Source: a bacterium
GTDB lineage: Bacteria; Patescibacteriota; Minisyncoccia; Phycocordibacterales; JAUSHB01
Length of the DNA: 64,000 nucleotides
Reading direction: 5' to 3'
Assembly: GCA_030648955.1 (NCBI GenBank)
Contig: JAUSHB010000010.1
Span: 13,556 to 77,555 of the forward strand
The translations under genes and the position numbers were made by a program. This document shows positions 1,641 through 55,157 of this stretch, one piece after another. A model generated the notes under the pieces. That model saw nothing but the letters and a program-made list of their open reading frames with translations, was not told where the DNA came from and made no database searches. Every line of letters starts with the position of its first letter. Position 1 is the first letter of the stretch.

Positions 1641-2585
1641 ATGGCCTCCATTAAAGAGCTGGGTGTTGTCAAGACAATCTTAACAACTTCATTATTATAT
1701 TTCCAAATATTGCATAAAATGTCAAGTTCTTGTACACTAAGTGCATTAAAATCTCATGTTAAACATCTGGGACTCGTGCCTATAAAAAAAACATTAAAAA
1801 AAGACGGATTTAATAAGGACTATATTAAACTCGTCTATTCAACACTTCCCCAGAAACTTGCCGACCAGCAAGTTTCTTTCATAATCAAAAAATTTAAGTT
1901 AAAGAAAGGTATGAAAATTCTTGATGTTGGATGCGGTAATGGTAGACACTCTTTAGAGTTTGCACGGGAAGGATACTCAGTGACAGGAATTGATTCTTCG
2001 AAAGATTTGATTGTGCTTGCAAAGAGGAATGCCCGAAAAGAAAAACTAACTATTAAATTTACCCAAAAAGATATGCTGTCACTTCCCTTTATTGAAGAAT
2101 TTGACGCAGTTATAAGTATATTTTCATTTGGTTTTCTTACTAAAAGAGACAATCATAAAATTGCAGTGGGAAAGCTTGCCCGTTCACTGAAAAAGGGAGG
2201 AAGGCTAATACTAGCAACAGGAAATTCTTTATTAAAAATTAAAAACGCAAGAAAGAATTGGATAAAAAATAAAAAGACTAGCTTAATTACAAATATCTCA
2301 AAAAAAATATTAGGCGATGGAATAGTAACTACCACAAAAGAAGTAGTTGATATTGTGTCAATGAAACAAGTGGTTGAGAGCACGTGGAAAGAAGGCGGGA
2401 AGATACATGTGCTAATGTCAACGATGCATCTTTTTACGCCCAATGAGATAAAAAAAATATTAACTGAGAGTGGATTACGTGTCGTGGGCATGTGGAGTGA
2501 TTTTGATAATTCTCATTTCTCACATAATTCTAAAAAACTTATTATTTCAGCAATTAAAAAAGAGTTGCCAGATAATATTAAATAA
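1641..2585 (+). CDS. class I SAM-dependent methyltransferase
   Basis: Motif I is ILDVGCGNGRHS, followed by the acidic-loop and post-I motifs typical of the Rossmann-fold methyltransferase family. The true start is probably downstream (for example the ATG at 1719), because 1641 lies only 2 nt from the divergent minus-strand start. Confidence 0.75.
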   Translation: MASIKELGVVKTILTTSLLYFQILHKMSSSCTLSALKSHVKHLGLVPIKKTLKKDGFNKDYIKLVYSTLPQKLADQQVSFIIKKFKLKKGMKILDVGCGNGRHSLEFAREGYSVTGIDSSKDLIVLAKRNARKEKLTIKFTQKDMLSLPFIEEFDAVISIFSFGFLTKRDNHKIAVGKLARSLKKGGRLILATGNSLLKIKNARKNWIKNKKTSLITNISKKILGDGIVTTTKEVVDIVSMKQVVESTWKEGGKIHVLMSTMHLFTPNEIKKILTESGLRVVGMWSDFDNSHFSHNSKKLIISAIKKELPDNIK

Positions 2586-2735
2586 AGGGGACTACGTTTG
2601 TAGTCCCCTTTTCACACTGCTGGTCATCGGTTAGATGTCCAGCTTGCCCTCCTTAGATCCCTTGACGAGAACCCGGAATTGGTCTTTTGACATTGCGATC
2701 GTATTGCCGAAGTCGTCGGTGACAACCACTTGCTT
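2579..2735. repeat. 157-bp direct repeat, copy B
   Basis: Identical to 1395..1551 except for one base (ccagTttgcc versus ccagCttgcc). Confidence 0.9.
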
Positions 2736-2897
2736 TGTAGACTCTGCAGTGTTGTCCGTGAAAATCTGTGGGCAACCATCGCACTTATCACCACATAAGG
2801 TCATGACAAGTTGCTTTTCTTTGCTATTCATATAAAGAACCTCGCTTTGATCTGTTACCAGGACAATCCCAGCAACCCTATTTTTAATGTACAGCAT
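2631..2897 (-). CDS. small Cys-motif protein (CGDKCDGCP), paralog of 1447..1638
   Basis: 88-aa ORF (the start may be an internal Met). It has a C-x3-C-x2-C motif followed by the shared C-terminal 35 aa and the same terminator hairpin. Confidence 0.5.
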   Translation of the reverse strand: MLYIKNRVAGIVLVTDQSEVLYMNSKEKQLVMTLCGDKCDGCPQIFTDNTAESTKQVVVTDDFGNTIAMSKDQFRVLVKGSKEGKLDI

Positions 2898-4238: not shown

Positions 4239-4283
4239 ATACTTTTTGGACTATATTAAAACAGTCAAAATGAGTCTACTACA

Positions 4284-4334
4284 CCCCCAGAATACCAAAA
4301 ATCCCCCGATTTTTCAATGGGTTTGTGGGGATAT
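4284..4334 (-). promoter_or_regulatory. R-repeat copy 1 (promoter/operator-like), 46 nt upstream of the kbl-like start
   Basis: The minus strand reads TTGAAA-17 nt-TATTCT, with the spacer palindrome AAAAATC-GGGG-GATTTTT. It is one of six copies. Confidence 0.5.
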
Positions 4335-5690: not shown

Positions 5691-5717
5691 ACATAAAAAT
5701 TTTAACAAAGAATCTTA

Positions 5718-5768
5718 CCCCCAGAATACCAAAAATCCCCCGATTTTTCAATGGGTTTGTGGGGATAT
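5718..5768 (-). promoter_or_regulatory. R-repeat copy 2, between two convergent genes with no obvious target gene
   Basis: Identical to copy 1 over about 50 nt. Confidence 0.45.
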
Positions 5769-8083: not shown

Positions 8084-8147
8084 TATAATACTACCTTCGT
8101 AAGCAGATACTGTCAAGATGTATTATCTCTATACGTTCCAAATACCA

Positions 8148-8184
8148 AAAATTCCCCGGTTTTTCAATGACTTTGTGGGGATAT
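8148..8184 (-). promoter_or_regulatory. R-repeat copy 3 (variant), about 90 nt upstream of the RHH start
   Basis: ccaaataccaaaaattccccggtttttcaatgactttgtggggatat. Confidence 0.45.
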
Positions 8185-8288
8185 TGGAGTAGCTACATAT
8201 ACTGAAATTTTACTTGACAGTAATAGTCCGCATACTATATACTTAAAGCACTAAACGTGAACGGCATCCTATATGGGTGCCGTTCTTG

Positions 8289-8912
8289 TTATCTCCTTTT
8301 TAATCGTTCACGAAGATATTCAAAATCCCTAAAATTACTCCCGGCGAATTGACGAATTTCTTTTGCAGTTCTCGGCCCCCTCGCTAGAACAATAACCTCC
8401 TTTTTTATTTCTCTAAGATACTTAAGCACGGGCAAGAAATCACCATCACCAGAAAGTACGACGATGCGATCAAATTTATCTCGTTCCTTCATAAGATAAA
8501 ATGCCATATCTACATCACAGTTCGCTTTTCGTTTTGTTGTTCCATCTTCCTGGTCATACAACTTCACTGGCTTAAGGAATAATTGATACCCGAACTGTTC
8601 AAGTCTCAGGTAAAATCTTGTTCTTTGTAGGTGTCTACCGATCAAAAGAATGTCAGCCTCATTAAGTTCTTTTCCGCTGTTCTGCAATAATCCAAGAAGA
8701 TGTTTTTCGAGGGATTTTAGCGGAACGGTTTCATTTGTTTGATAATTATATTTAAAATTATGAACTTCAACACCTCCGAAGTAGAGTGTTTTCTTGACAT
8801 CATATTTTTCTTGTAGATACTCTAGTAGTTTTTCGTAATCTATCTTCCACCCTAAACTTTTTTCTCCACCATAAAAGAGATTTGACGCATCAATAAAAGC
8901 AAAAGTTTTCAT
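8289..8912 (-). CDS. NYN-domain (LabA-like, PIN-fold) protein
   Basis: FIDASNLFYGG ... VVLSGDGDFLPVLKYL matches the NYN / LabA family. Confidence 0.75.
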   Translation of the reverse strand: MKTFAFIDASNLFYGGEKSLGWKIDYEKLLEYLQEKYDVKKTLYFGGVEVHNFKYNYQTNETVPLKSLEKHLLGLLQNSGKELNEADILLIGRHLQRTRFYLRLEQFGYQLFLKPVKLYDQEDGTTKRKANCDVDMAFYLMKERDKFDRIVVLSGDGDFLPVLKYLREIKKEVIVLARGPRTAKEIRQFAGSNFRDFEYLRERLKRR

Positions 8913-8937
8913 AGCGAAAAATTATATACCCCCAAAA

Positions 8938-8987
8938 TACCAAAAATCCCCCGATTTTTCAATGCTTCCGTGGGGATAGGTAATTAA
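8938..8987 (-). promoter_or_regulatory. R-repeat copy 4, directly upstream of the NYN gene
   Basis: A TATATAAT element lies about 8 nt before the ATG, so the transcript is probably leaderless or has a very short leader. Confidence 0.5.
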
Positions 8988-10259: not shown

Positions 10260-10514
10260 TTACGCATACAACGTATGAGAACCGACATCCATAAAATATA
10301 CTTTTTTCTTGTGTAGTTTTATAATAATTCGATAAGCAAAATTCACAGAAAAAGCATGGTATTTTTTTAATTTTCCGTGCAATTTATGGAGTTTTATTTC
10401 CCCCTCGTTCTTTTTATTTTTAAACAACGCAACAGTGCGATAACAATCATCTTGGACCGCGGGAGATAATTTTCGAAAGGAACGCAAGAATCTGGCGGTA
10501 TAAAGATATTCCAT
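10260..10514 (-). CDS. type II toxin, RelE/ParE superfamily (YafQ-like)
   Basis: LHKLHGKLKKYHAFSVNFAYRIIIKLHKKKVYFMDVGSHTLY fits the RelE/YafQ C-terminal signature. It overlaps the upstream antitoxin by its start and stop codons. Confidence 0.7.
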   Translation of the reverse strand: MEYLYTARFLRSFRKLSPAVQDDCYRTVALFKNKKNEGEIKLHKLHGKLKKYHAFSVNFAYRIIIKLHKKKVYFMDVGSHTLYA

Positions 10515-10516
10515 TA

Positions 10517-10738
10517 TTACTTACTTCGTCCCGCTAATTTTTTGAGATCGCCCTTATAGACACGTCCTGTTTTAATATCGTTTTCCGCCTCCTGTATCCG
10601 CAAAAGTATCCGTTCTTCGCGAAGACGCTCGAGAGCAAACCGCACGAGATGCGCCTTGCTCTCACTTGTTCCCTGTGCAAGCTCCTCCTCAATAAAATTC
10701 TCGAGGTCTTTATTGATGGGTATGGTAATGGTAGTCAT
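10517..10738 (-). CDS. type II antitoxin, RHH/ParD-like
   Basis: 73 aa, ...SKAHLVRFALERLREE..., sitting immediately upstream of the toxin. Confidence 0.65.
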   Translation of the reverse strand: MTTITIPINKDLENFIEEELAQGTSESKAHLVRFALERLREERILLRIQEAENDIKTGRVYKGDLKKLAGRSK

Positions 10739-10792
10739 ATACTATATCTTAGTACTATATTATAGTAATTGCAAGTCAATAAAAGTGGTTCT

Positions 10793-10849
10793 CTGGAGAT
10801 ACCAAAAATCCCCAGATTTTTCAATGCTTCCGCGGGATACCGCCTATCA
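10793..10849 (-). promoter_or_regulatory. R-repeat copy 6, about 55 nt upstream of the antitoxin start
   Basis: ctggagataccaaaaatccccagatttttcaatgcttccgcgggatacc. Confidence 0.45.
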
Positions 10850-10863
10850 AGTTTCCCACAGGT

Positions 10864-12492
10864 GTGGTATTTTACTCTGTAATGGCCAAAGTAATACTCT
10901 CGGCAAAAGATACATCGTTTGAGCTCCAACATAAAACTCTTTTTAAAGAGCTTAATCTGACGATAAAAGAGGGCGATCGGATCGGATTGGTTGGGAAAAA
11001 CGGCAGTGGAAAAAGCACGCTTTTAAAATTGCTTGCGGGACAAATCGAAACAACAAGAGGCGTGATAGAAAACAAGGGTTCCTCGTACTATCTCCCCCAG
11101 TTAGACTTCTCGCTTTTTGGAAGCACCGACAAAATAGAAGAATATGTTTTTCGCCAAGGAGTAAATTGGTCCGCCCTTAATGCAAAGCTTCGCAAATGGT
11201 TTAAAGAAAACGAAATCAAGCCTGACCAAAAACTTCAAACACTCAGCGGAGGTGAGTTGATGAAACTCAATCTCGCGATCGCCGAAGCACACAATCCCAA
11301 TCTCTTGCTCCTTGATGAGCCAACAAACCACCTCGATGCAGAAGGTATTGATATTTTAAAGAAATTTCTCACAACATTCCCGGGGGCATTCATTATTGTT
11401 TCTCACGATCCATTCTTTCTTAATCTTGTGGTAAATCATATTTGGGAACTTGAGGAAGGAGCTGTCGCCGAGTATGGAGGGAATTATACACATTATGCCG
11501 ACCAGAAGCAGTTTAAGAAAGATGCGCGAGAACGGGATTATACGGCAACCAAGAAAAAATTAAAGAAGGTCAAAAAATCCATTGAAGCAGAACAAAAACG
11601 CGCAGACCGCTCAAAGCGCGTGGGAAGAAAAGAAGTGTTCGCAAACAACATGCCGCCGGTACTGAAAGGATTTTACGCAAACCAAGCATCCGGTACCGCG
11701 GGCAAGCAGGGAAAAAAACTAAGAAAAATCATGGCGCAACGAGATGAGAAAGCCAGTACATTAAAAAAGGAGAAACAACGTCCGCTGCGGTTTGTGATCG
11801 ACCACGACACTTCCGGCGCGCGAAAAACGTTAATTGCCATTAATGACGGAGTGCTTGGGGTTGCAGAAAAAACTCTTATCGAAAATATCGACCTTCGCAT
11901 TGTTTATGGCGACCGCCTTGTGTTAGTCGGCAAAAATGGCAGTGGAAAAAGTACGCTTGCAAAATCTATTGCAGGAGAAGATGCTGTGGTGGAACTCGGA
12001 GGGTACGTCAAACGCTCCCCCGACGCAGGTGTGGTGTATGTGGACCAGAAATACCAAATCATCGCCCCCAACCTTACGCTTATCGAGAATGTGGAAAAAT
12101 ATAATCCGAAACTTACTCATGAAGAAGTGCGGAGACAACTTGGTCGTTTTCTTTTCTATAAAGAAGAAGACGCGCGCAAGAAGGCGGGAGTCTTGAGTGG
12201 AGGCGAGGCGGCACGTCTTGTGTTTGCGATGGTCACGGCGGGATCAGTCGATCTTCTGGTGCTTGATGAACCAACCAACAACCTTGATATTGAAACACTT
12301 GATATTATCGCGGATGCTTTGAAAGATTTCGCGGGCGCATTGGTGATAATCTCTCACAACATACATTTTCTTAAACGTATCGGTATAGACACCGCGCTTA
12401 TCATCGACAAAAAGAAACTCAAAACCATGCGCTCGTCCCCCGCCGAACCAGAAGCGTTTTATAACGAGATGGTTAGTAGCATGAGTTCGTAA
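10864..12492 (+). CDS. ABC-F family ATPase (two tandem ABC domains, no TMD)
   Basis: Two Walker A motifs (GKNGSGKST twice), two LSGGE signature motifs, and an inter-domain linker rich in K/R/E. Confidence 0.85.
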   Translation: MVFYSVMAKVILSAKDTSFELQHKTLFKELNLTIKEGDRIGLVGKNGSGKSTLLKLLAGQIETTRGVIENKGSSYYLPQLDFSLFGSTDKIEEYVFRQGVNWSALNAKLRKWFKENEIKPDQKLQTLSGGELMKLNLAIAEAHNPNLLLLDEPTNHLDAEGIDILKKFLTTFPGAFIIVSHDPFFLNLVVNHIWELEEGAVAEYGGNYTHYADQKQFKKDARERDYTATKKKLKKVKKSIEAEQKRADRSKRVGRKEVFANNMPPVLKGFYANQASGTAGKQGKKLRKIMAQRDEKASTLKKEKQRPLRFVIDHDTSGARKTLIAINDGVLGVAEKTLIENIDLRIVYGDRLVLVGKNGSGKSTLAKSIAGEDAVVELGGYVKRSPDAGVVYVDQKYQIIAPNLTLIENVEKYNPKLTHEEVRRQLGRFLFYKEEDARKKAGVLSGGEAARLVFAMVTAGSVDLLVLDEPTNNLDIETLDIIADALKDFAGALVIISHNIHFLKRIGIDTALIIDKKKLKTMRSSPAEPEAFYNEMVSSMSS

Positions 12493-12512
12493 AAACATAT
12501 AATATTAAATGT

Positions 12513-13031
12513 ATGTCACCCAAGTTAGTAAAACCAAATACAACGTACCAAAAAAGCTATACTGAAGCTCTTTGTGAATTTCTTACTGAGTCTCAATCTC
12601 CAGAACATATTGAATCAGAAATTAGAAATGTACTAGATTCTATAAACCACAAAAATGATGCTGCGCAAGGAAAAAATTTAGTTAGTGGTGAAGTGACTCG
12701 AAGTGAATTTTGGCTCATTGATAAAGAAAAATACATCGGAATGATACAGATTAGACATAAACCAAGTGGTCGAATTCCTGAAGCAGCGAGCCATATTTAT
12801 TATGAAATACGTCCATTAGAGCGTGGAAAAGGTTATGGTGTTGAGATTCTTCGACAAGGACTTATTGAGGCAAAAGGGCTCGGGTTGCAAGAGATAATTA
12901 TTACCTGTGATAAGAATAATATTCCGTCTCAAAAAATTATTCAAACAAGCGGTGGTCAATTTATCGCGGAGATACCTATGCCTAACAAAGAAATCCCCCT
13001 TCTTAAATATAAAATTTCTTTGAGTGAATGA
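12513..13031 (+). CDS. GNAT family acetyltransferase
   Basis: ERGKGYGVEILRQGL matches the R-x-x-G-x-G/A acetyl-CoA motif. Confidence 0.6.
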   Translation: MSPKLVKPNTTYQKSYTEALCEFLTESQSPEHIESEIRNVLDSINHKNDAAQGKNLVSGEVTRSEFWLIDKEKYIGMIQIRHKPSGRIPEAASHIYYEIRPLERGKGYGVEILRQGLIEAKGLGLQEIIITCDKNNIPSQKIIQTSGGQFIAEIPMPNKEIPLLKYKISLSE

Positions 13032-13039
13032 GGAGGAGA

Positions 13040-13072
13040 AAACCGCCCCGAAAATAAATTCGGGGCGGTTAA
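13040..13072. terminator. bidirectional terminator ACCGCCCCG-N10-CGGGGCGGT
   Basis: GC-rich 9-bp stem flanked by A/T runs, between convergent genes. Confidence 0.7.
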
Positions 13073-13091
13073 AAGGGACTATCGAATGTAG

Positions 13092-13445
13092 TTAGCCACG
13101 AGAATGGTGTTCGTGACCATTAGGGGCTTGAATGCAAATACAAGCCATTTGGGGTTTCCCCGTATCGAGCCGCCAGCTTGTGATTCTGGCATGCGTAGCT
13201 TCGATTTCCGCAACCTTAACTGGCCGCATACGCAGTGTACGGTCGTCTGGGTTATTGGTTTCAAGCATCACTTCATCATCACCAACAGAAAAATGCTGGT
13301 GGAGCAAGTTCACCCCGAAACGGTCAAGGCACCTGTGCTTCTTCAGTACTTCCGCAACATCCGCAAGACATTTCTCGTCACTTACAGAGAAGAGAGGAAC
13401 CTGACTAAGGTCAGGGAGTGGATTGGTTTGTGAAATGTTCTGCAT
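13092..13445 (-). CDS. hypothetical small protein
   Basis: 117 aa, with a GGAGG-type RBS 9 nt upstream and conserved element M further upstream. The overlapping plus-strand ORF 13104..13433 is judged spurious. Confidence 0.4.
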   Translation of the reverse strand: MQNISQTNPLPDLSQVPLFSVSDEKCLADVAEVLKKHRCLDRFGVNLLHQHFSVGDDEVMLETNNPDDRTLRMRPVKVAEIEATHARITSWRLDTGKPQMACICIQAPNGHEHHSRG

Positions 13446-13474
13446 TTAAGTACCCTCCTGGGGTTCAAATGGCC

Positions 13475-13515
13475 ACTAACGAATGTTAATAGCTCTGTAA
13501 GGCAGAATACATTCT
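13475..13515 (-). promoter_or_regulatory. conserved 5' element M, copy 2
   Basis: ACTAACGAatGTTAATAGCTCTGT-N5-AGAATACAT lies 30 nt upstream of the 13445 ATG. Confidence 0.5.
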
Positions 13516-13593
13516 AGATAAAATATGTCAATAGTGGCAAGTGGTAATAAATTCTTAGTATTTTGAAGGCTTTGTGGAAATAGAAAAAATAAT

Positions 13594-15391
13594 CTACCGT
13601 AACCCAATATGAAGCTCATAAATGTGGCGATAGGAACCATTAGGAATTTTCATAAGTTCATCGTGACTGCCTTGCTCGATAATATTACCACCGGCCAACA
13701 CTAAAATTCTGTTTGCCTTGCGTACCGTACTTAAGCGGTGAGCAATAATAAATGTGGTACGTCCTTTCATTAACCGCTCAAGAGATTCAGTAATACTCCT
13801 TTCGGTCTTGGGATCAAGCGCGCTTGTCGGCTCATCGAGAATAAGAATTTTGGGATTGCGTAAAATGGCGCGAGCGATCGCAATACGCTGCTTTTGTCCT
13901 ACAGAGAGCTTCACCCCCCGCTCACCTACCAACTGTTCGTACTTCTTCCGAAAACCTTCAATGAACTCGCTCGCATATGCTTCTTTAGCGGCACTATAAA
14001 TCTCCTCATCAGATGCGCCTTGATTCCCATGACGAATATTCATTTTTATTGTGTCATTGAAGAGCACTACTTCCTGTGGCACCACGGCAATATACTTTCG
14101 CAAAAATTCCAAATCAAGATCACTGGTTTTATGCCCATCAACCAACACATTGCCACTTTTAGGAAAATAATAACCGGAAATAAGGTCGACGAGCGTGCTT
14201 TTACCCGCACCGGATTCTCCAACGAGTGCAACTACTTCCCCCGCAGTTACAGAAAAATTCACATTTTTGAGCACAGAATCCCCGCGTTTATAGGAAAATA
14301 CAACATTCGAAAACTCGATATTCCCCTGCAGTGGAGATAAGTTCTTCTTTTTTCCAAACCGATATCGCTCTATAGGCACCGCGAGTATTTTTTCCGCACG
14401 TTCAATCGCAATAATGCCGTTTTGGATGATCTGCCAATTGTGTCCCAGTGTTACAAATGTGTCCCAGTGTTACAAATGGACCAAAGACCATAGCCGCATA
14501 TCCATTGAGCGCGATGAGTCCTCCAATCGTAAGTTCCCCTGCTTGAATAAAATGTACCGACAAAATAAAAATAGTAAGCTGTGTCGCCGCAATCACCATA
14601 CGCTGATAAAATCCAATGCCACTCCAAATTTTCTCGACCTTATACCAAAATGTTGCCGCTTTGTTGATAAATTTTCTCCTTACTTTTTCTGATTCATATT
14701 CTTCCCCTGTTGATTGCTTGATCGTTTGCGTATTGGCAAATGCGTCATATGCATCCCCATATGCTTCATTCCACGCCTTGTTCCCCTTTCGTTGATATTT
14801 CACAATCGGAGGAACAATGATTGCAAGAAGTATCACATAGACTATGATTCCAACAACAATAACAGAAGCGAGAAGTGGATGAATTAAAAAAGCAATAGTA
14901 ACGCCGACTGCGACACTAAGAAATTGCGGGGCGAGATTGATCACTACCTGTTCAATAATATTCGAGAGCGCATTCCCTGCTCTCATAAAACGATCCCAAA
15001 TAATTCCCGTTTTATATTCCTTATGAAACGAGAGCGGGAGTCTTAAAAGGTGGGCGGTTGCACGTGCGGGATATTCCGCATGGATAAATGTTCCTATCCG
15101 TCGACGTTCCTTATCGTTGATCCAATCAGAAATATTTGCGACCAGTTGTACAATTACCCAAAATGCAATAAATCCCGTCCACTGGGGCATAACAACAGGA
15201 TAGTTAAACATAAGTGATGGATTGAGTAAGGAATCTAAAAACTTTCCAACAATAAAAGGCACTGATGCATTTGCAAACGCAGAAAATACCCCCAAAAGAG
15301 AAAGAAAGGTAATTTCTTTTTTATATTCCCCGAGATACTGGAAAAGTATTTTCCAGCCTTCTGTAAGATTAAGTGTTGCTTTTTTCTGCAT
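13594..15391 (-). pseudogene. ABC exporter (fused TMD-NBD, MsbA/ABCB-like) interrupted by a 19-bp tandem duplication
   Basis: 14402..15391 encodes a 6-TM ABC exporter membrane domain. 13594..14379 encodes the NBD (Walker A GESGAGKST, signature LSVGQKQR, Walker B ILILDEPTSALD) and begins at GTG. Deleting one copy of GTGTCCCAGTGTTACAAAT (14439-14457 or 14458-14476) joins them in frame as ...FGPFVTLGHNWQIIQNGIIAIERAEKILAVPIERYRF... Confidence 0.75.
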
Positions 15392-15467
15392 ATCCCTCTA
15401 TTTATAGCATTTCAAGGAACTTGCCACCAATCAAAAGTAATAAAAGGTGGGGAGCATGAATCCTCTA

Positions 15468-16196
15468 TTATCGTGCAACAGGTACTTTGTTAAAATTCGA
15501 GATACGTACATGTTCGCGAGCGGATGAATTGTGTAATTTTGCAACTTGCAACATTATTAATTGTGCCGCGTGTTTATAGTCCTCAATGGTTACTGTTGCA
15601 ACATCAGGAAAAATATCTTTGGGATACAGTGGTTTCCCATATTTAATACTGATTTTCCTTCTGCGCAACACAAAATCAATAGGACTCATTTTGAAATGAC
15701 CGTTCATTGCGACGGGAACAATAGGCACTCCTGTTATATGAGAAAGAAATGCAACACCTCCTTTCCCATTTCCCACTTCCCCGTTCTCTGTTTTCCCTCC
15801 TTCGGGAAACATAAGAATGCTTTTGCCCGCATTAAGGATATTGATGTGTTCTTGAAGCGAGAGTGTGTAATCTTTCTTTCCTGTATGTGCAGGATACGCT
15901 CCCCACAATTTAAACCAAAATCCACCATAAATATATTTACTGAAACCGTCTTTTTCGTAAAATTCCCGCTCGCGAGCAACATAAAATATCGGCGTTATGG
16001 GAGAGAAGGGATTAAGACTCGCAGGCACCAAAATGGGATCAAGCTCACTTCCGTGATTAGCCGCAAAAATTACTCCGTGGGAAAGCCCCTTAAGATTTTC
16101 CTTCCCAAAAACTTTGAAGCGTGCAAAAAAACCAAGCACTAGCCATGTCGGAATCCAAACGAGTGTCTGTAATATGAATGGTGAAAAATACCTCAT
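15468..16196 (-). CDS. plsC: 1-acyl-sn-glycerol-3-phosphate acyltransferase (LPLAT/PlsC family)
   Basis: HX4D motif AANHGSELD, the FPEGG motif, and an N-terminal TM segment. Confidence 0.75.
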   Translation of the reverse strand: MRYFSPFILQTLVWIPTWLVLGFFARFKVFGKENLKGLSHGVIFAANHGSELDPILVPASLNPFSPITPIFYVAREREFYEKDGFSKYIYGGFWFKLWGAYPAHTGKKDYTLSLQEHINILNAGKSILMFPEGGKTENGEVGNGKGGVAFLSHITGVPIVPVAMNGHFKMSPIDFVLRRRKISIKYGKPLYPKDIFPDVATVTIEDYKHAAQLIMLQVAKLHNSSAREHVRISNFNKVPVAR

Positions 16197-16201
16197 TGTT
16201 A

Positions 16202-16723
16202 TTATTTTCGTTCAATAAAAAACACTAGCCCCAAAGAACCTGCTATCCAAAAAAATAACGCCATAGGCGCTATGAATAACTTATCAATACTGGGAGAAAA
16301 ATTATATATAAGTACTTCCCCGTGAAGTAACTGATAATAATACGCAAGAATGAGCCCTGATGAGGCAAGTCCGAGGGATATAGATTGGAAAAACTTCATT
16401 GTCCCCGATGGATAGTCGCCGTGGATTATGCTTCTTAAAATCACATGTACTATTAAAAAAAATATGAAGAACGAAATGACATTGACCAAAAATGCGCTAT
16501 GGGGAAAAAGCGATGCGATAATTTTTTCCCGAAAAGAAAAAGCGACATACATCGAATGCGCGCCAATGAGTGCGATTAAAAATGAAATAGCGCTCCGCTT
16601 CCCCGCATAAAACGCAAACGCGGATAGTGAAACGATGATTACTAAAATGGCAATGGTATCGAGTGAAAAGCTCGCTAGGGGACTGAGGACATTTGCTAAT
16701 ATCTGCTTGCTTTCCATTGGCAT
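16202..16723 (-). CDS. integral membrane protein (hypothetical)
   Basis: 173 aa and hydrophobic throughout. Confidence 0.45.
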   Translation of the reverse strand: MPMESKQILANVLSPLASFSLDTIAILVIIVSLSAFAFYAGKRSAISFLIALIGAHSMYVAFSFREKIIASLFPHSAFLVNVISFFIFFLIVHVILRSIIHGDYPSGTMKFFQSISLGLASSGLILAYYYQLLHGEVLIYNFSPSIDKLFIAPMALFFWIAGSLGLVFFIERK

Positions 16724-16731
16724 AATCTTAA

Positions 16732-17808
16732 TTATATTCCCTCTTTTTTAAGATTTTCTATGATGCCTTCAACTCGCTTCGAGAGCTTGCCCGGCATTTT
16801 TATATTAAGTTTGACCAATAAGTCACCCCGACGCTTGTGGTCAATGGGCACTCCCCTTTCTCGGACACGTAAAATTTCTCCGAATGAAACTCCGGGAGGG
16901 ATTTTGAGAGATAGCGTACTCCCTTCAAGGGTGTTGATTGTATACTCTCCACCCAAAAGTGCGTCTGAAAGTTTAATACTAAGATCCATCACAATGTTGT
17001 TGCCCTCGCGCTTGAATACTGGATGCGATGTGACATGAATCTTGACATAGAGATCACCTGCCACTCCCCCTGAAACTGCTTCTCCCATCCCTGATAATCT
17101 AATCATTTCGCCAGCCGAAATTCCTGCTGGAATTTTTATGGTGATACTTTCTTCACGTTTTTCTACACCAACACCTTTGCAGGTAGGACATTTTTCTTCA
17201 GGAATCTGCCCTCGTCCATGGCAAGCGCTACAATCCACAACGCTCGTAAATACGCCGAAGAATGATTTACGCGTTTCATGAACTTTTCCTTGTCCATTAC
17301 ACGCAGAACATTTCTTCATCGAAGATCCCGGCTTGCCGCCTGACCCGTTGCACGTCTGACACGCAGAAACTTTATTGAGAAGAACGCTTCGCTCGGTACC
17401 CAAGATCGATTCAGTGAATGAAATCTGAAGGTCAATGGAAATATCTCTCCCCCTCTTTACCTTACTTCTTCCCCCCTTTGCACCACCAAAAAAATCACCG
17501 AAAATTTCATCAAGATCAACACCTTCAAATCCTTGCTGTCCCCCAAATCCAGAAAAATCGAAGCCGCCAAAACCTTGTCCGCCCTGTGGTCCACCCCCGG
17601 CAAACGTTTCCCCGTACGAATCATATTCCGCGCGCTTTCGGTCATCCGAGAGTATCTGATACGCTTCATTTACTTCTTTGAATTTTGACTCATCGCCCCC
17701 TCCTTTGTCGGGGTGAAATTTATGTGCAAGCTTCCTGAACGCCTTTTTAATCTCTTCTTTTGAGGCGCTTTTGGGAATCCCTAAAATTTGGTAATAGTCT
17801 TTTGCCAT
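16732..17808 (-). CDS. dnaJ: chaperone DnaJ
   Basis: J domain [31 protein letters not shown], a G/F-rich linker, and four CxxCxGxG zinc-finger repeats. Confidence 0.9.
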
Positions 17809-17842
17809 AAAATGTTGTTTATTGCCATATTATATCACAGCG

Positions 17843-17872
17843 GTTGTTTAAAAAAACAAACATGTGCTTGTT
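17843..17872 (-). terminator. dnaK-dnaJ intergenic hairpin plus T-run (attenuator/terminator)
   Basis: Minus strand: AAAAAAACAAGCACATGTTTGTTTTTTT. Confidence 0.4.
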
Positions 17873-17886
17873 TTTTTAAATGAACG

Positions 17887-19821
17887 CTATTTTTGGGGCG
17901 CTTCTCCGCTATCCCCCTCTTTGAAATCCGCGTCGCGGACATTTCCGTCTTGCCCTGAACTTGTCGAGGGGTCGCCACCTTTTTTATCATCTTTTTTATC
18001 AGAGGATGTAGTACTGGCTTGCGCTTTTGCCATCGCTTCACCAATCTTTTGCATTTCAAGCGAAAGTTCTTCAGTCGCTTTCTTGATGACTGTTGAGTCA
18101 TTGCCGTCCTTAACGCCTTTGAGTGCCGTAACCTTTGCTTCAACAGCTGATTTTACTGGAGCAGGCACCTTGTCGCCTGCGTCGCGAAGTGATTTTTCCG
18201 CAGTATAGATGGTCTGCTCGGCAATGTTGCGCGCATCGACAGAATCCTTTTTCTGACGGTCCGTTTCTGCATTTGCTTCCGCCTCTTTACGCATACGTTC
18301 AATATCTTGTTCTGAAAGTCCCGAACGCGCCTCAATGCGAATTGATTGTTCTTTGCCGGAAGTTTTCTCGCGCGCTTTCACATTGAGAATGCCGTTTGCG
18401 TCAATATCAAAGGTCACTTCGACTTGTGGCATACCGCGAGGTGACGGCGGAACTCCGTCGAGAATGAAGCGACCAAGACTCTTGTTATCTGCCGCCATAG
18501 CGCGCTCTCCTTGCACGATATGAATCTCCACCGATGTCTGATTATCAGCGGCAGTTGAAAACACTTGAGATTTTGATGCTGGAATTGTGGTATTGCGTTC
18601 AATTAATTTTGTCGCGACTCCGCCGAGTGTTTCGATGCCAAGCGAAAGCGGAATAACATCAAGAAGCAAAACGTCTTTCACATCACCCTGCAAAATTCCC
18701 GCCTGAAGCGCGGCACCAAGAGCAACAACTTCGTCAGGGTTGATCGAGCGATTCGGCTCTTTTCCAAAAAGCTTTTTCACCGCATCGATAATGGCAGGCA
18801 TTCTCGTCTGACCTCCCACTAAGATCACTTCTTGAATTTCCCCTATTTTAAATGGTGATGCGCCGATCGCTTTTTTCGTGATCTCAATTGAACGATCAAT
18901 GTATTCGCGTGCAAGCTCTTCAAGAGTTGCGCGGGAAAACTTCAGAAGCAAGTGTTTTGGACCAGAAGCGTCGGAGGTAATGAATGGAATATTGATTTCT
19001 GCTTCAGTTGTTGTTGAGAGTTCATGCTTCGACTTTTCTGCCGCTTCCTTGAGCCTCTGAAGCGCTAAAACATCTTTGGTCACATCAATGCCACTTTCTT
19101 TTTTGTATTCATCGGCAATCCAGCGAATGATTTTTTGATCAATGTCTTCCCCGCCCATGTGCACATCGCCATCGGTTGACTTCACTTCGATGACATCATC
19201 GGCAACTTCAAGCACGGAAACGTCAAACGTACCACCACCGAAGTCATAGACAACGATTTTTTCATCTTTCTTTTTATTAAAACCATATGCAAGCGCCGCC
19301 GCGGTTGGTTCATTGATAATGCGCTTTACGTCAAAACCAGCTATCTTTCCGGCATCTTTGGTTGCCTGTCGCTGACTGTCATTAAAGTACGCGGGAACGG
19401 TAATCACTGCTTCAGTAATTTTTTCTCCAAGTTTTGCTTCTGCGTCGACTTTCAGTTTTTGAAGCACCATCGCTGAAATCTCTTCGGGGCGGTACCATTT
19501 CCCACCCATATCAACCTTAACCCCGTCATTATCGGCGCGTTCTATCGTAAATGAAACATTTTTTTTATCGCGAATTACCCCCTCATCATCAAAACGATGA
19601 CCAATCAAACGCTTGATACCAAAAAGTGTGTTCTTTGGATTGGTCACTGCCTGTCGCTTAGCTAAAAGACCGACGAGACGTTCCCCTGCTTTTGATTGAG
19701 CGATCACCGAGGGTGTAGTGCGTACCCCTTCGGCATTCTCAATAATCTTCGGCTCTCCGCCTTCCATAACCGCCATTGCTGAGTTTGTAGTTCCCAAATC
19801 TATACCTATTATTTTTGCCAT
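17887..19821 (-). CDS. dnaK: chaperone DnaK (Hsp70)
   Basis: [18 protein letters not shown] and full-length Hsp70 homology. Confidence 0.95.
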
Positions 19822-21047: not shown

Positions 21048-24000
21048 CTAATACCCGACCAGTAACTGTCCTTTGTCTGTCATCACCGTAACCACCGCAA
21101 TTCCCGGCTTTGATATTTTTATTTTTTTACTTTTTCCCTCTTCAACCTCATCCACAATCTTGGTTTCGTTGATTGCTTGTTTATATTTCGTTTCAATTTT
21201 GCGCATATCCTTAAGATGAATTTCTTGAGAGAGTGACTTTAGTATATCATTTTTGAATTTCCATTCATATTCGAGTGTTGTTTTTGGTGTTGCTGTGGCA
21301 ATGCCATTGTAGATGATCGTATTAAAAACAACCTTAATTTCCGTGGGTTCTTCTTCGTACTCAAGGAAAGGGATGTTGGTTGTGTTGCCTGCTTCGTCGG
21401 TAATCGTGGTGCTGGTTGCGGTGGTGTTTACCGTAGTGGATGAGAGATTATCGATGCCCGTGATAAAAAATTTGTTGGCAGCGGGGTCAAAAGTAAAACG
21501 TGCTTCTGGTGGGGTTGCATCATAGATAGTGGTACCGCCAAGAGTTGGTTTAAGTGTGGAATCGATTGTGTTATCGTTGTTGAAATCAATCGCGAGTGTA
21601 GTCGTAGTTGAAAGTACTCCTGTCCATGTAAGAGTCACTTGTGTGGTTGTAGCAGTGGGAATAGCTTCGTAGGTGGTGGAAGCCATGACAATGTCGCCAC
21701 GAAGCTCTTCAAGGTCAAGAGTGAACGAACCTGAAGCGTAGGCATCAAGTTTTACGGTATGCAAAGTATCGGCAGAAACAATGATAATTTTGGTATCACC
21801 AAGAGTGTAGTAAGTACTACCCTTGATGCCTTCTTCAATCAATCCCGTGGTCGTCGAGATACCAGTATGGTTGCCTGCTTGGTCATAGATGTTGAGGTTG
21901 AGGGGTGAATGAAGTTGATACTTGATATATGGTTTTGTGGAGACAAGTAATGAAGAATCATTGGTAATATATTGTTCAGGGGTCGAACTGCTTATGACAA
22001 TCGAATGGATGAAGGAGCGAAGGGGATCAACTTCAAGAATATTTTTGTGCTCACGGTCAATTGTTGATGTTAAATTGTTATACTTTCCCAAATCCACCCA
22101 CCACTTTTGCGTCATTGAAGAAGTCGGCATGAGATGCGCGCTTTCTTCCACCACTGTTTTGTCGCCGTTTAACGTTACCTTATCTTGAATTTTAATGACA
22201 TCAACATATCTCTCACAAATAATTGGTTGTGGTGCGCCGATTGTTTGCGGTGTCGATGGGGGATCTCTGGGGATACATACTTTATTCTTTTCGTAACGAA
22301 TCACCGCGGGAGTATATATCCCCCACCCTGCGATTTCATAAACCATAGTCGATGTGGCAGGAGTCCATTGGTCGAGCGTCGCGTGGATTGTTTCGGCGTT
22401 TGAAAGCAGGGTTGAATTTCCAATCGCAGGAGAAGAAAGATCGTCATAGGCAGGTACAGCCCGTCCGTCACCGCCCGTGAGATAATCTGCAAGCTCATCA
22501 TAGGTGTCGATGGTATCGCCATAACGTGCTGAGATTACGGGACTCACTGCGTTTCCTCCAAACTCAATGAGCGGCGTTGAGGAGCCGATGTATGCACGCG
22601 ATGGAAGGAGATTGTATCCCGTTGGCATATTGTGCAAAAGGTCACGAACGCGCTCCGCATCCATGAGAAAACCTAATGGACCAAGACTTCCGCCATGAAG
22701 AAGCTGGCCGACAGTGTCAGGCGTTCCTGCTTGGGGAACGGCGACAAAAATAACATTGTCGATTCTGTCGTAGAGGGGGTCGTTGGCCTCCTTCAGTTTT
22801 TGAATGAGCGCCTTGGTGACGAGTCCACCGTTTGAATGCGCAACGATGGTGACCTTTTGGGTCTTCGACGAATCCGCGAGTATTTTCAACTGCTTGTATA
22901 GGTAACTATTTGTGAACCCTTGCGGGGTACTGTATGAAATCCCGTCAGTTGATGTTGCGCCATTCTGAAGAATATCCTCGAGTGAGAGCCGCCAATCGTA
23001 TGCGATCATAGAGTAATCGTTGATGATGTGATCGGCTTCTTTCCACTTCTTGAGGTCGTTTATAAACGATTGGTAAATATTGGAAGCATATACTTCATCA
23101 ATAACACCAGCGGTGCCTTCTTTTGTGTATAACGAGTTAATGCTCTTCCCTGCTCCATTGAGTACGAGGCGTTGGTGATTGCAGTCCAGTATTGAAACCC
23201 AGCGTTCTTTTTCATTGTTAAATACTCCACAATCGCTGCTTTTTTCAAACAGTCTTGATCCCATCATCCCCGGCAAAAACAGAACGTTGGAATAACAGTC
23301 GGCGGTGCAGGGAGGGGGTATATTGTTCCACCCATCTTGTGTTGTCCACGGAAGATTATCCTGCCCGCCATAAAAAATATATGGCGAATCGCAGAAGTTG
23401 TCGTTATTTGAATCACTACAACCCTCTGCTGTCGTATCAAAGTTACTCCAGTAGTTGCCACCGATTGATGGGGTGAGATTAAAAACATTACCGTTGCCAC
23501 CATTGACACGAGCCTGCGTAAAGTTGCCGATAAGATTGTTGTTGTAAACTTGGTTGTTGTTGGAAGAGAATAGATAGATTCCGTAAACGTTATTGTTTGA
23601 TGCAGTGTTGTTTGTCAGAATGTTGTTACTGGATAAGGAAAATAAGATTCCATAAAAGTTGTTCCCTAACACAGTGTTGTTTGTCAGTGTGTTATTGTTT
23701 GAGGAACCATAGAGGAGAATTCCGGAGTTGTTGTTTGATGCGATATTGTTTGTCAGAACGTTATTGCTACTGGAAGAGTCGAGATAGATTCCAGAGTTAT
23801 TGTTTGAGGAATTTACGTTCGCAATTGTGGATGAGCTTGTTTGTATGAGAAATAAGCCGTTGTTTTTCTTCGTTATCGAACCGTCAATTGTGATATTGTT
23901 TATATTTGAACCGCCGGCGTTGCACAGTATCAATTCAGAAAAAGTTTCATTACTTAAGGTAACCGCGCTGTTGAAGTATCTGATTGGTCTCCCGCCGGAA

Positions 24001-24977
24001 CCAATAGTGTTGGTAATACTGTTGTCACAATGGCTATCTGACGATACTTGAACATGAAGGTCGTCGGAAGAGTTTTCCTGCGCAACATTGTTCATCAGAA
24101 TATTATTACTGGAAAAGTAGAGGTAGATTCCAAAACCATTTGAACTCGCGGTATTGTTGGTTAAAGTGTTGTTGTTACTAAGATATCCAAGAAAGATTCC
24201 GTAACTATTTGAGGTCGTAGTGTTGTTGGTTAAAGTGTTGTTGGATCCACGGAGTAAGATTCCATTCAAAAATTTCTTAACATTTAAATTCTTGATAGTA
24301 ACGCCAGTCCTTCCAGAAAATCCGGAAAGATAGACACCGTTTCCCGTATTGCTCCCGGTTAACATGTGGCTGTTGCCGTCAAGCGTTATGCCATTGCTGT
24401 CGATCTGAATGGTCTCGGTTAAATCCACATTCAGTGTGCAGGTTTTAATAGCGGAATCCCAGTTGCCAATCAAAGTGCAATCGCCGCCAGTGGCATCATC
24501 ACGAATGAACTTGGTGCTTTTGTGGGTTTGGATAAAGACAATGTGGGGAGTTGAAATGTCTTGCGTGTATGAATATGCGCCGTTTTCGTCAGTGGTAAAT
24601 TGAGTCAGGTTGTGATAATTGTCTTCATATTTATAGTAAGTGGTTGAGGTAGTAAAACCATAAAGGGTGATCTGGGTTGAGGTTGCAATTAAAAGAGCGG
24701 GCGACTCAATCGTCATTGTTACCATGTTGGGAACCGACTCCATTCTAAGTTTGATTACTTCTGTGCTGTCTAAACTGATATTTAAATATGCGCTGTCGGT
24801 GATAGAAAAGTTTGCGCTCGTACCTTCTACGACGCCTGATCGTGTCGATGGTTCAAACGATGGCAACTCTTGAGCTCTTGCGCGATCAGCGAATAAGAAT
24901 ACCCCTGCGACAAAAACCGCCGCAAGTACAAGATGGGGCGCAAAGAAAAACTGTGATTTTAGGTTCGATATATTCAT
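21048..24977 (-). CDS. giant secreted multi-domain protein: signal peptide, parallel beta-helix repeats, lipase-like alpha/beta hydrolase, C-terminal beta-rich domains
   Basis: Signal peptide MNISNLKSQFFFAPHLVLAAVFVAGVFLFADRARA. Repeated N-N-x-[TL]-x-N-N-T-A-S-N-N / GIYL units indicate a right-handed beta-helix. The motif VLFLPGMMGSRL ... VTIVAHSNGGLV is a G-H-S-x-G nucleophile elbow of the PGAP1/LCAT-like lipase type. The C-terminal 400 aa are Thr-rich and Ig-like. Confidence 0.8.
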   Translation of the reverse strand: MNISNLKSQFFFAPHLVLAAVFVAGVFLFADRARAQELPSFEPSTRSGVVEGTSANFSITDSAYLNISLDSTEVIKLRMESVPNMVTMTIESPALLIATSTQITLYGFTTSTTYYKYEDNYHNLTQFTTDENGAYSYTQDISTPHIVFIQTHKSTKFIRDDATGGDCTLIGNWDSAIKTCTLNVDLTETIQIDSNGITLDGNSHMLTGSNTGNGVYLSGFSGRTGVTIKNLNVKKFLNGILLRGSNNTLTNNTTTSNSYGIFLGYLSNNNTLTNNTASSNGFGIYLYFSSNNILMNNVAQENSSDDLHVQVSSDSHCDNSITNTIGSGGRPIRYFNSAVTLSNETFSELILCNAGGSNINNITIDGSITKKNNGLFLIQTSSSTIANVNSSNNNSGIYLDSSSSNNVLTNNIASNNNSGILLYGSSNNNTLTNNTVLGNNFYGILFSLSSNNILTNNTASNNNVYGIYLFSSNNNQVYNNNLIGNFTQARVNGGNGNVFNLTPSIGGNYWSNFDTTAEGCSDSNNDNFCDSPYIFYGGQDNLPWTTQDGWNNIPPPCTADCYSNVLFLPGMMGSRLFEKSSDCGVFNNEKERWVSILDCNHQRLVLNGAGKSINSLYTKEGTAGVIDEVYASNIYQSFINDLKKWKEADHIINDYSMIAYDWRLSLEDILQNGATSTDGISYSTPQGFTNSYLYKQLKILADSSKTQKVTIVAHSNGGLVTKALIQKLKEANDPLYDRIDNVIFVAVPQAGTPDTVGQLLHGGSLGPLGFLMDAERVRDLLHNMPTGYNLLPSRAYIGSSTPLIEFGGNAVSPVISARYGDTIDTYDELADYLTGGDGRAVPAYDDLSSPAIGNSTLLSNAETIHATLDQWTPATSTMVYEIAGWGIYTPAVIRYEKNKVCIPRDPPSTPQTIGAPQPIICERYVDVIKIQDKVTLNGDKTVVEESAHLMPTSSMTQKWWVDLGKYNNLTSTIDREHKNILEVDPLRSFIHSIVISSSTPEQYITNDSSLLVSTKPYIKYQLHSPLNLNIYDQAGNHTGISTTTGLIEEGIKGSTYYTLGDTKIIIVSADTLHTVKLDAYASGSFTLDLEELRGDIVMASTTYEAIPTATTTQVTLTWTGVLSTTTTLAIDFNNDNTIDSTLKPTLGGTTIYDATPPEARFTFDPAANKFFITGIDNLSSTTVNTTATSTTITDEAGNTTNIPFLEYEEEPTEIKVVFNTIIYNGIATATPKTTLEYEWKFKNDILKSLSQEIHLKDMRKIETKYKQAINETKIVDEVEEGKSKKIKISKPGIAVVTVMTDKGQLLVGY

Positions 24978-34720: not shown

Positions 34721-34777
34721 TACTATAGCAGAAAGTTGCCAGCAAAAGAACGATACGCCCTATCGTAAGCCATATTA

Positions 34778-45376: not shown

Positions 45377-46776
45377 TTGAAAACAATGAACAACCTGAAA
45401 ATACCGCTAAGAAACGACTGGCTGGGGGAGATCAAAAGGCGTAGCCTTGAGCGTATGCGAAATACTGCTGAAAAGGAGCTGAATCCAAACCATTACCAAT
45501 TGTCGAGCGAGGCAAAGAAGAGACTATGCTGGATGTATGCGCTTTACAAAGAACAGGGCGGGAATGTGACTGTCGCTGCACGCAATATCGGGATTTCCAG
45601 ACAGTGGCTGTCGGAGCTGAAGGCAGTCTTTGAAAAGCACAGGAAAGATCCCCGCTCGCTTGAACCGGAATCGAAAGCTCCAAAGAATACGCGGAACAGA
45701 AAAAGGATATCGAAGGAAGTGGAGGGTAAGATACTGGAAGTGAGGGCTCTGTCAAAGAATGTGTGGGGAAAACAGAAGATTGCGGTGGTGCTTCTGCGAG
45801 ACCATCACATCGTCGTTGCCCCCAACACCGTGAACAAATATCTGCACAAACACAAGAAGATTGACCCAAAAATATCACTGAAGAATGAGCGTGCATGGAA
45901 AGCAAAATTGGAAAGAGAGAAACCGGAAGCAGAGTTGTTTGTAAGATACCGCCCGCCGAAAGCAATCAGAAAGCAATCAAGGATTTGGCACCGGGAGCAC
46001 TTGTGGAGAAAGACATGAAATATGCTGTAAAACCAAGCTCAAACGATACACACGGCACCGTGAGCAACTTCTGGTATCAACATACAGCAACAGATTCTTT
46101 TACGAGAATCCGAGCACTCACGCTCGCGAAAGACAGCACCGCAGATGGCTCTGCAATTGCGTATGCGGAGTCAAAAGAAAAGTTTCCATTCCGTACCGCA
46201 TGTGCGAACACCGACAATGGGAGCGAGAACAAGGGGGAGCTCCGCGAGATGCTCAAGAAAGATACCGTCTTCCACTTCTACTCAAACGCAGGGACTCCAA
46301 CTGACAATCCGAGAGTCGAGAGATCGCACCTCACGGATGAGCTTGAGTTCTACCAGAAAGGCGGTTTCAAGAAAACATTTGGGGAGCAACAAGAAGCGAC
46401 GGCAGTATGGGAGCACTTCTACAACTTCGTGAGACCGCATCAAGCACTGGGATACCTGACACCGATGGCATTCTATGAATTATGGAAAACGGATGAAGAA
46501 AGTGCGTTTGAAATCGTGGGGAAATATCAAAAGTATTTGGCGAAACAAAGTAAGAGGCTTGCGGGGGCGAGGAGGATTAAAAAGACGGAGCAAGTACAAA
46601 AACTTATGGAATTTATCGATGTAAAATTAAATCAAAAGGTCGGACTAAAAAGAGCTAAAGAAGCTCTGATCAACTGTCAATTATGTTCCATAGCTTGAAC
46701 ACAATCGAATGGCCTCACCAAAAATCTAAGTGTGGCAAGTATCGTGACCTCACGAAAAATCTAACTGTGAGATATT
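45377..46776 (+). mobile_element. insertion sequence 1: rve-type DDE transposase in two overlapping frames (orfA 45377..46018, orfB 45895..46698); ends not resolved
   Basis: orfA has an HTH and an IS481/IS3-like N-terminus (...VTVAARNIGISRQWLSEL...). orfB has an integrase-core DDE domain (...DNGSENKGE ... NPRVERSHLTDELEFYQ ... FVRPHQALGYLTPMAFYEL). orfB is in the -1 frame relative to orfA with a 124-nt overlap. A 65-bp block with two CCTCACsAAAAAT subterminal repeats sits at 46707-46771. Confidence 0.7.
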
Positions 46777-46898
46777 GACAGAGGAGATCGGGAATTCAAA
46801 TATTACGCCACACAATTACCGAAACAATTACGGCTGTCCCTATTATCCCACCTATTATCCCACCTATTATCTATTATCTTTATAAAAAACACACCATT

Positions 46899-55089: not shown

Positions 55090-55127
55090 ATGAATATCCT
55101 CCCAGTTGACAAGTTACGACGAGAAAA

Positions 55128-55157
55128 ATGTACTGAAATGTACTGAAATGTACTGTG
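55128..55157. repeat. 10-bp tandem direct repeat ATGTACTGAA x2.8 upstream of the small ORF
   Basis: The helical-turn periodicity is typical of response-regulator (OmpR/PhoB-type) binding sites. Confidence 0.5.

Follow-up and report, generated by a model that had tools for sequence, protein, structure and literature searches.

The 64,000-nucleotide (nt) stretch of DNA considered here (hereafter the window; contig JAUSHB010000010.1, 91,951 bp long, of assembly GCA_030648955.1, positions 13,556 to 77,555) comes from a strain of uncultured Patescibacteria (Paceibacterota, near Candidatus Yonathbacteria) and carries on its minus strand, at 13594..15391, an ATP-binding cassette (ABC) exporter gene that is split into two open reading frames (ORFs) by a perfect 19-nt tandem duplication. 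The most probable explanation, which we hold with some confidence from sequence comparison, is that this gene is a null allele, or very young pseudogene, of a dispensable exporter and that it was made by a slippage-type tandem duplication. Indeed, with one copy of the duplication removed, the inactivated gene as a whole is predicted to encode a 592-amino-acid (aa) half-transporter of the ABCB type (type IV fold).

On the plus strand of the window, the 19-mer GTGTCCCAGTGTTACAAAT has exactly two occurrences, 14440-14458 and 14459-14477, which adjoin head to tail. The stretch with an exact period of 19 is slightly longer (14439..14478, minus strand in the sense of the gene; 40 nt, 2.1 copies) and is composed of the two perfect copies and 2 nt of flanking microhomology, forming a frameshifting lesion of +19 nt. 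Read in the sense of the gene, it is C-ATTTGTAACACTGGGACAC-ATTTGTAACACTGGGACAC-A, in the wider context ...GGTCC ATTTGTAACACTGGGACAC ATTTGTAACACTGGGACAC AATTGG..., the flanking homology being limited to the dinucleotide CA, and no inverted repeats were found around the site. A first-pass annotation of this DNA had reported a perfect back-to-back duplication of 19 bp, which direct sequence matching and Tandem Repeats Finder (array 14435-14478, period 19, score 81) both bear out. The intervals that it gave, 14439-14457 and 14458-14476, are likewise exact mutual copies (rotated unit TGTGTCCCAGTGTTACAAA), only the string quoted for them being shifted, since this string sits one base to the right. 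Across 100 dinucleotide-preserving shuffles, none contained two matches of the 19-mer, even with up to 3 mismatches allowed, and perfect tandem duplications with a unit of at least 9 nt numbered on average 0.3 per shuffled window versus 4 in the real one. Chance is excluded as the origin of the 19-bp duplication.

The first-pass annotation had also left room for an assembly artefact, which is effectively excluded as far as the assembler is concerned. A separate assembly of the run SRR13727527, in Logan, contains a contig of 10,094 bp (SRR13727527_891522) that is 100% identical to the window over 7.9 kb (10468-18349) and encodes the same frameshifted product of 329 aa. Moreover, at k=31 no k-mer repeats inside the 40-nt periodic stretch, and a de Bruijn graph is hence unable to invent an extra copy; the junction k-mers between the first and the second copy are impossible from a one-copy template and must be present in the reads. 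The two-copy allele would be the majority or fixed state in the population.

The consequences for the reading frame are straightforward. The 5' fragment of the exporter gene (ORF 14402..15391, minus strand; 329 aa, MDO8572507.1 in the source genome) encodes the authentic six-helix membrane domain in its codons 1-311, its last 18 codons being out of frame, while the 3' fragment (ORF 13594..14379, minus strand; 261 aa from a GTG start, MDO8572506.1 in the source genome) encodes the nucleotide-binding domain. The copy reached first by the ribosome (14459..14477, minus strand) is still translated as the authentic ...F V T L G H; the one that follows it in gene sense (14440..14458, minus strand) is out of frame, gives I C N T G T and opens an aberrant tail. 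Because 19 equals 18+1, the duplication causes a +1 frameshift, and the ribosome leaves the authentic frame after ...GPFVTLGH. Comparing the translation with the orthologue alignment, the aberrant 18-residue tail of the 329-aa ORF is ICNTGTQLADHPKRHYCD followed by the stop (peptide ICNTGTQLADHPKR), this stop being the TGA at 14402-14404. What is lost between the two fragments is the conserved linker joining helix 6 to the ATPase domain, NWQIIQNGIIAIERAEKILA, which is encoded by neither ORF in the split state and corresponds to about 20 residues, namely the end of transmembrane helix 6 and the cytoplasmic extension to the ATPase domain. Deleting either copy yields a single 592-aa ORF with both domains, reading ...FGPFVTLGHNWQIIQNGIIAIERAEKILAVPIERYRF..., and the ORF list places the duplication at the junction of ORFs 14402..15391 and 13594..14379, the latter with its GTG start; the earlier proposals of a lesion at this junction and of an in-frame fusion of roughly 600 aa upon removal of one copy are both upheld.

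Regarding the downstream half, its start signals are poor. The annotated GTG (14377-14379), which follows the membrane-domain stop by 22 nt, corresponds to an internal Val codon; the family is variable at this position (T, L, E, M, S or V), where the three nearest orthologues have ATG (Met). The GTG would be, if anything, a weaker start than the codon of these relatives. No Shine-Dalgarno-like motif is present within 25 nt upstream of this GTG, and in the other long ORFs examined in the window the first start is ATG in all but one of 34. The upstream in-frame stop that had been reported for the nucleotide-binding-domain frame is confirmed as a TAA (14470-14472) that arises inside the extra copy, and between this TAA and the GTG at 14379 the frame contains no ATG, GTG or TTG. 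The gene caller used by Logan selected another GTG 35 codons further in, for a product of 226 aa that would lack the A-loop Tyr. A free-standing nucleotide-binding domain with a start of its own, against which the first-pass annotation had argued, is made unlikely by the non-conserved GTG, the missing Shine-Dalgarno-like motif and the single-copy state of the relatives. As a separate observation on the genome, most of the 34 long ORFs considered window-wide (for example at 8912, 13031, 15391, 28169, 45257 and 52839) have no Shine-Dalgarno sequence and carry a TATAAT-like box 5-12 nt upstream of the ATG, which suggests that leaderless or very short-leader mRNAs may be the norm.

The restored protein has all the hallmarks of an ABC exporter. 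It matches PF00664 ABC_membrane (E=2.5e-27) over residues 32-306, covering profile positions 6-274 of 274, and PF00005 ABC_tran (E=4.9e-36) over residues 368-517. Its ATPase motifs are intact and conserved with the orthologues, including Walker A (GESGAGKST), the Q-loop (PQE), the signature (LSVGQKQR), Walker B (ILILDEPTSALD) and the H-loop (AHRL). Among solved structures, its best matches are ABCB1/ABCB4, Atm1, ABCB6/7 and HlyB, and the restored protein is predicted to adopt the ABCB/type IV exporter fold. It resembles MsbA, Sav1866, Atm1 and HlyB in the order of membrane and ATPase domains, in the full ABC_membrane domain and in the presence of all ATPase motifs, but it is an orthologue of none of these named members and the window gene is presently split: the two domains, which occupy two ORFs in the window as it stands, share one polypeptide only after removal of one copy. 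In the NCBIfam equivalogs, the restored protein falls under the curated cutoff of every named family, MsbA included (363 bits against a cutoff of 602 for the MsbA equivalog TIGR02203, and 281 against 867 for NF008381). The earlier label 'MsbA-like' is hence appropriate for the architecture but not for orthology. A heterodimer partner or paralogue was considered and rejected: neither of the two ORFs of about 600 aa at 32894-36577 encodes an ABC exporter, their products being an alanyl-tRNA synthetase and a trypsin-like protease, and apart from an ABC-F ATPase (10864-12492) no further ABC protein is encoded nearby.

Comparison with orthologues, which the first-pass annotation had proposed as a check, gave a uniform picture: the site is single-copy in all loci read as DNA and the two-copy state was seen in none. 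This holds for 9/9 orthologous loci (labelled here L001-L008 and L037, the latter with 90% amino-acid identity) and likewise for two further sequences discussed below (L033 and L034); in these loci the single copy is non-repetitive, with no repeat tract at the site. In 17 further homologous loci retrieved by genome and metagenome scans, the frame is open across the whole match. At the protein level, the best 120 homologues listed, all from Patescibacteria-type metagenome sequences, possess both the ABC_membrane and ABC_tran Pfam domains (120/120), and none is naturally split into separate domain genes (0/120). Their lengths are 573-636 aa for 115 of them, the five shorter ones (432-562 aa) being fragments, and the three closest match the restored protein along its full length (100%) with 95%, 94% and 84% identity. 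In the 121 aligned proteins, the linker pattern NWQ.+QNG++++E+AE++L contains the most conserved residues of the region, with NWQ, QNG, E, AE and L conserved at 80% or above. The exact one-copy (fused) protein of the strain is absent from about 15 billion proteins, a DNA pattern permitting one or two copies retrieved neither allele from the metagenome contigs of JGI, and a scan of genome contigs returned only relatives at 58% identity or less, the source genome hence not being among the GTDB representatives. One of the more distant homologues deserves a mention of its own: at about 3286-3291 of locus L016 (CAZRNH010000003.1), from a genome labelled 'Saccharibacteria', a 50%-identical homologue has an in-frame TAG (…FSNVI*LDYLAKGF…) in an otherwise collinear match, which is either a nonsense mutation or a case of recoding.

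Several features indicate that the lesion would be recent. The two 19-nt copies are identical and the gene is otherwise without lesion; no secondary decay (further stops, indels or relaxed constraint) was seen in the window gene. With L003 as outgroup, the unique amino-acid versus synonymous changes are 4 vs 34 on the window branch, 3 vs 45 on that of L001, in which the gene is intact, and 12 vs 45 on that of L002. Because the copies are identical and constraint is not relaxed, the lesion is likely recent; in terms of population, either it would be young or the allele would not be fixed.

Moreover, a related lineage has also lost this exporter, by an inactivation that is independent and, in that case, irreversible. 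In Candidatus Yonathbacteria GCA_016235485.1 (L033 1-1786, JACRKS010000068.1), the orthologue, with 87% nucleotide identity to the window gene, is annotated as two proteins, and the same Yonathbacteria DNA is found in Logan SRR12113407 (L034). This orthologue is split as well, alone among the relatives, and by different lesions: the gene is 5'-truncated, the first ~52 codons being replaced by unrelated DNA, and it contains a 1-nt insertion (CAAG-CAGGGG to CAAGTCGGGGG) adjoining a G5 run, 65 nt upstream of the duplication site of the window. This independent and irreversible loss favours dispensability over regulated switching and suggests that the exporter may be dispensable in the clade. The neighbouring ABC-F ATPase gene of the same Yonathbacteria DNA (L033 1802-3411, minus strand; L034 1664-3324) is also frameshifted, the signature codons GGAGGTGAG of its relatives being changed to a G8 run one base shorter; this run may exist in the genome as a homopolymer tract or may reflect an artefact of poly-G sequencing.

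The surroundings of the exporter gene vary as well. Between the acyltransferase and ABC exporter genes, which are 76 nt apart in the window, the relatives have a gene for a small secreted protein (L001 1679-2275, L003 3189-3746, L004 1748-2344 and L002 274-636) of 198 aa, or in a different 120-aa version in L002, with a PEP-CTERM-like C-terminus (PVPVPxSFWLLGSGLIGLIRFKR). The 198-aa neighbour, absent from the window, was considered as a lost partner gene and set aside, since this secreted protein is variable and the rest of the window encodes no homologue of it; it was not used as evidence.

Taken together, the single-copy orthologues, the lost linker, the want of a credible independent start and the independent loss in a relative support the first of the readings that the first-pass annotation had offered, namely a frameshifted pseudogene or null allele. 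The gene would be a null allele because the linker is not made and because the ATPase domain lies downstream without ATG or ribosome-binding site. In the scenario that we propose, a 19-nt segment in the region of transmembrane helix 6 would have been duplicated in tandem in this strain, most likely by replication slippage or misalignment; a hairpin or quasi-palindrome origin was rejected, the site having no inverted repeats around it. The ribosome would then add 18 wrong residues after ...GPFVTLGH and stop at the TGA, the linker would be made by neither ORF, and the ATPase domain would be left with no usable start. Reversion by precise excision would be possible in principle, as for any perfect tandem duplication. 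Four points weigh against this interpretation. The loss of function of the split gene is something that we infer from its sequence; the clear purifying selection on the rest of the gene would also fit a regularly reversed state; the position of the GTG, 22 nt past the membrane-domain stop, makes it conceivable that weak termination-reinitiation yields a free ATPase domain; and the strain is known from one sample (SRR13727527), the two assemblies probably sharing the same reads.

A second gene of the window is disrupted in the same manner. At 45958..45979 (plus strand), a perfect 11-bp tandem duplication (GAAAGCAATCA twice) interrupts an IS481-like transposase, which is thereby divided between ORFs 45377..46018 and 45895..46698. 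Once one copy is removed, the ORF encodes a transposase of 433 aa, with HTH and rve_3 domains, that aligns without gaps to relatives of 430-434 aa across ...RYRPPKAIKDLAPGALVEKDMKY..., and the duplication is also present, with 100% identity, on the Logan contig SRR13727527_317436. All perfect tandem duplications of the window were screened for those whose one-copy removal lengthens the spanning ORF, and exactly two do, the 19-mer (331 to 594 codons) and the 11-mer (269 to 439 codons). Both intragenic perfect tandem duplications with a unit of at least 10 nt hence disrupt a gene by frameshift, the genes being otherwise pristine. Perfect tandem duplications of this unit size number 4 in the 64-kb window versus 1 in 168 kb of related loci, suggesting, from a small sample, that mutations of this kind are either frequent in the genome or tolerated well by it. 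Two perfect tandem repeats are intergenic, one at 55126-55155 (a 10-mer, AAATGTACTG x3.0) and one at 46839-46871 (a 12-mer, CCTATTATCCCA x2.75), about 140 nt downstream of the transposase stop.

Among the other explanations, the one that survives best is a reversible on/off switch (contingency locus), in which slipped-strand gain and loss would alternate between an OFF state with two copies and an ON state with one, as the first-pass annotation had envisaged. The copies are perfect and adjacent in a gene whose remainder is under purifying selection, and excision would restore function at once; a second gene is turned off likewise in the same 64 kb; perfect duplications are more numerous here than in related loci; and there is a precedent in pneumococcal capsule genes (Waite et al., 2001; 2003, as cited in PMC4022640). 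However, the site has just two copies of a long unit and the one-copy sequence, with its 2-nt microhomology, has no repeat structure that would favour recurrence, nor is there a repeat at the site in any orthologue. The one-copy protein of the strain is missing from the protein collection and neither allele was found in the JGI contigs, the other disrupted gene encodes a transposase, for which switching is of no obvious value, and the 5' truncation in the relative is an irreversible loss of the same exporter, which speaks for dispensability. No sign of regulated switching was seen in the data examined (assemblies, relatives, protein and metagenome collections), and we regard such a switch as unlikely. 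The broader proposition that perfect intragenic tandem duplications serve as recurrent and reversible gene silencing in this repair-poor, small-genome Patescibacteria lineage is rather doubtful in our eyes; if it were true, with mixed alleles, duplication-based phase variation would extend from pneumococcal capsule genes to a membrane transporter of an uncultured episymbiont.

It is quite improbable that the duplication is a technical artefact of the library (an amplification or ligation chimera, or a polishing error) and that the real genome is one-copy. Such an explanation draws on the strain being seen in a single run, with two assemblies that may rest on the same reads, and on two gene-breaking duplications per 64 kb being many for a streamlined genome. 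Yet two different assemblers agree exactly through both duplications, the novel junction must reach the k-mer abundance threshold of the assembler in the reads, and random chimeras do not reach consensus. Moreover, the usual sequencing errors are substitutions and homopolymer indels, not perfect tandem copies of 11 and 19 nt.

Little credit can be given to a functional transporter made of two polypeptides, in which the truncated membrane domain and a free ATPase domain, produced by reinitiation at GTG 14379 (N-terminus MPIERYRF), would assemble non-covalently. The short distance of 22 nt between stop and GTG makes translational coupling or reinitiation conceivable, the 261-aa product would keep the entire ATPase domain including the A-loop Tyr, and the annotation of the source genome by the Prokaryotic Genome Annotation Pipeline lists both products as proteins. 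Against this, both products lack some 20 residues of the most conserved linker and the membrane domain ends in 18 foreign ones, a natural split occurs in none of the 120 best homologues, and the different start chosen by the independent gene caller removes the A-loop. Furthermore, the GTG stands for the Met of the nearest orthologues at a variable position, and is thus not selected as a start, and it has no ribosome-binding site.

Scarcely any weight is left for programmed +1 ribosomal frameshifting, giving a full-length protein of about 598 aa with a 6-residue insertion, or for the footprint of an excised transposon in the form of a target-site duplication: the frames would be rejoined by a +1 shift at any position from 14469 to 14405, with GGG-A at 14443-14446 permitting tRNA-Gly re-pairing in the +1 frame, and an insertion sequence (IS) element is present in the window, but no prfB-type shift site (a slow or stop codon in the A site with an upstream Shine-Dalgarno sequence) was seen in 14402-14478, the stop context GAU-UGA-A disallows re-pairing, the two duplications differ in length (11 vs 19 nt), and the feature is conserved in no relative, the relatives needing no frameshift. 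Frameshift rescue was rejected in both directions, -1 being the wrong one and +1 having only the weak GGG-A re-pairing and no stimulator, as was the transposon footprint on the differing lengths and on 19 nt being unusual for a target site. Indeed, 19 nt lies outside the usual sizes of target-site duplications and, to our knowledge, the excision of bacterial IS elements does not normally leave intact target duplications behind.

The window contains other repeats. A dispersed intergenic repeat of ~50 nt (ATACCAAAAATCCCCCGATTTTTCAATG…GTGGGGATA) with an internal hairpin (AAAAATC-CCCC-GATTTTT) is present in five copies within 7 kb (4283-4334, 5717-5768, 8141-8186, 8927-8981 and 10799-10836); it is conserved in a relative with 86% nucleotide identity (L001 5821-5867) and has no match in Rfam. 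A 156-bp direct repeat (1396-1551 and 2580-2735; 99.4% identity, about 1.2 kb apart) overlaps the ends of ORFs 1641..2585 and 2631..2897, and a degenerate 69-nt tandem repeat (23553-23807; 3.7 copies, 64% matches) lies in ORF 21048..24977 (1309 aa), where it probably encodes a repeated module of 23 residues. The tRNA and Rfam scans of the window returned nothing relevant.

Returning to the null allele, its implications are mainly for annotation and genome-quality bookkeeping, and the finding opens no long-standing question. MDO8572507.1 and MDO8572506.1 are halves of one frameshifted gene, and the exporter should be scored as absent or off whenever ABC transporters are counted, or metabolism is inferred, for this genome. 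The presence within 64 kb of two perfect tandem duplications that each break a gene is also a hint on the mutational spectrum or the population bottlenecks of these bacteria.

With respect to known systems, the simple-sequence-repeat contingency loci of Haemophilus, Neisseria and Campylobacter are homopolymer or tetranucleotide tracts made of many copies of 1-7-nt units and conserved among strains. The exporter gene has in common with them that the frame is set by the copy number of a repeat within the coding region; many short units are found there, whereas the exporter gene has a 19-nt unit in two copies and none of its relatives has a tract. Closer are the capsule genes cap3A and cap8E, and tts, of Streptococcus pneumoniae, for which tandem-duplication phase variation was described (Waite et al., 2001, Mol Microbiol 42:1223; 2003, Microbiology 149:497) and for which, according to the account given of these studies in PMC4022640, gain and loss of the duplications were directly observed at high frequency and act as phase switches. 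On that account, the likeness is that a perfect intragenic duplication turns the gene off, that excision would restore it and that more than one gene per genome is concerned, the difference being that switching was observed there, whereas here the one-copy allele of the strain was not found in the collections searched. Finally, spontaneous loss of function has been described in Xenorhabdus lrp through tandem duplications of 26-116 bp (PMC6786866), and a short tandem duplication in pneumococcal wchA is likewise a loss-of-function mutation (PMC4022640). These arose in culture or in clinical isolates with a phenotype, whereas the exporter gene is a single snapshot in a metagenome-assembled genome, but they share with it a perfect head-to-tail intragenic duplication whose length is not a multiple of three, formed from non-repetitive sequence in a gene otherwise intact. 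The duplication in the exporter gene is hence an ordinary kind of gene-inactivating mutation, already known in other bacteria, and implies no new mechanism.

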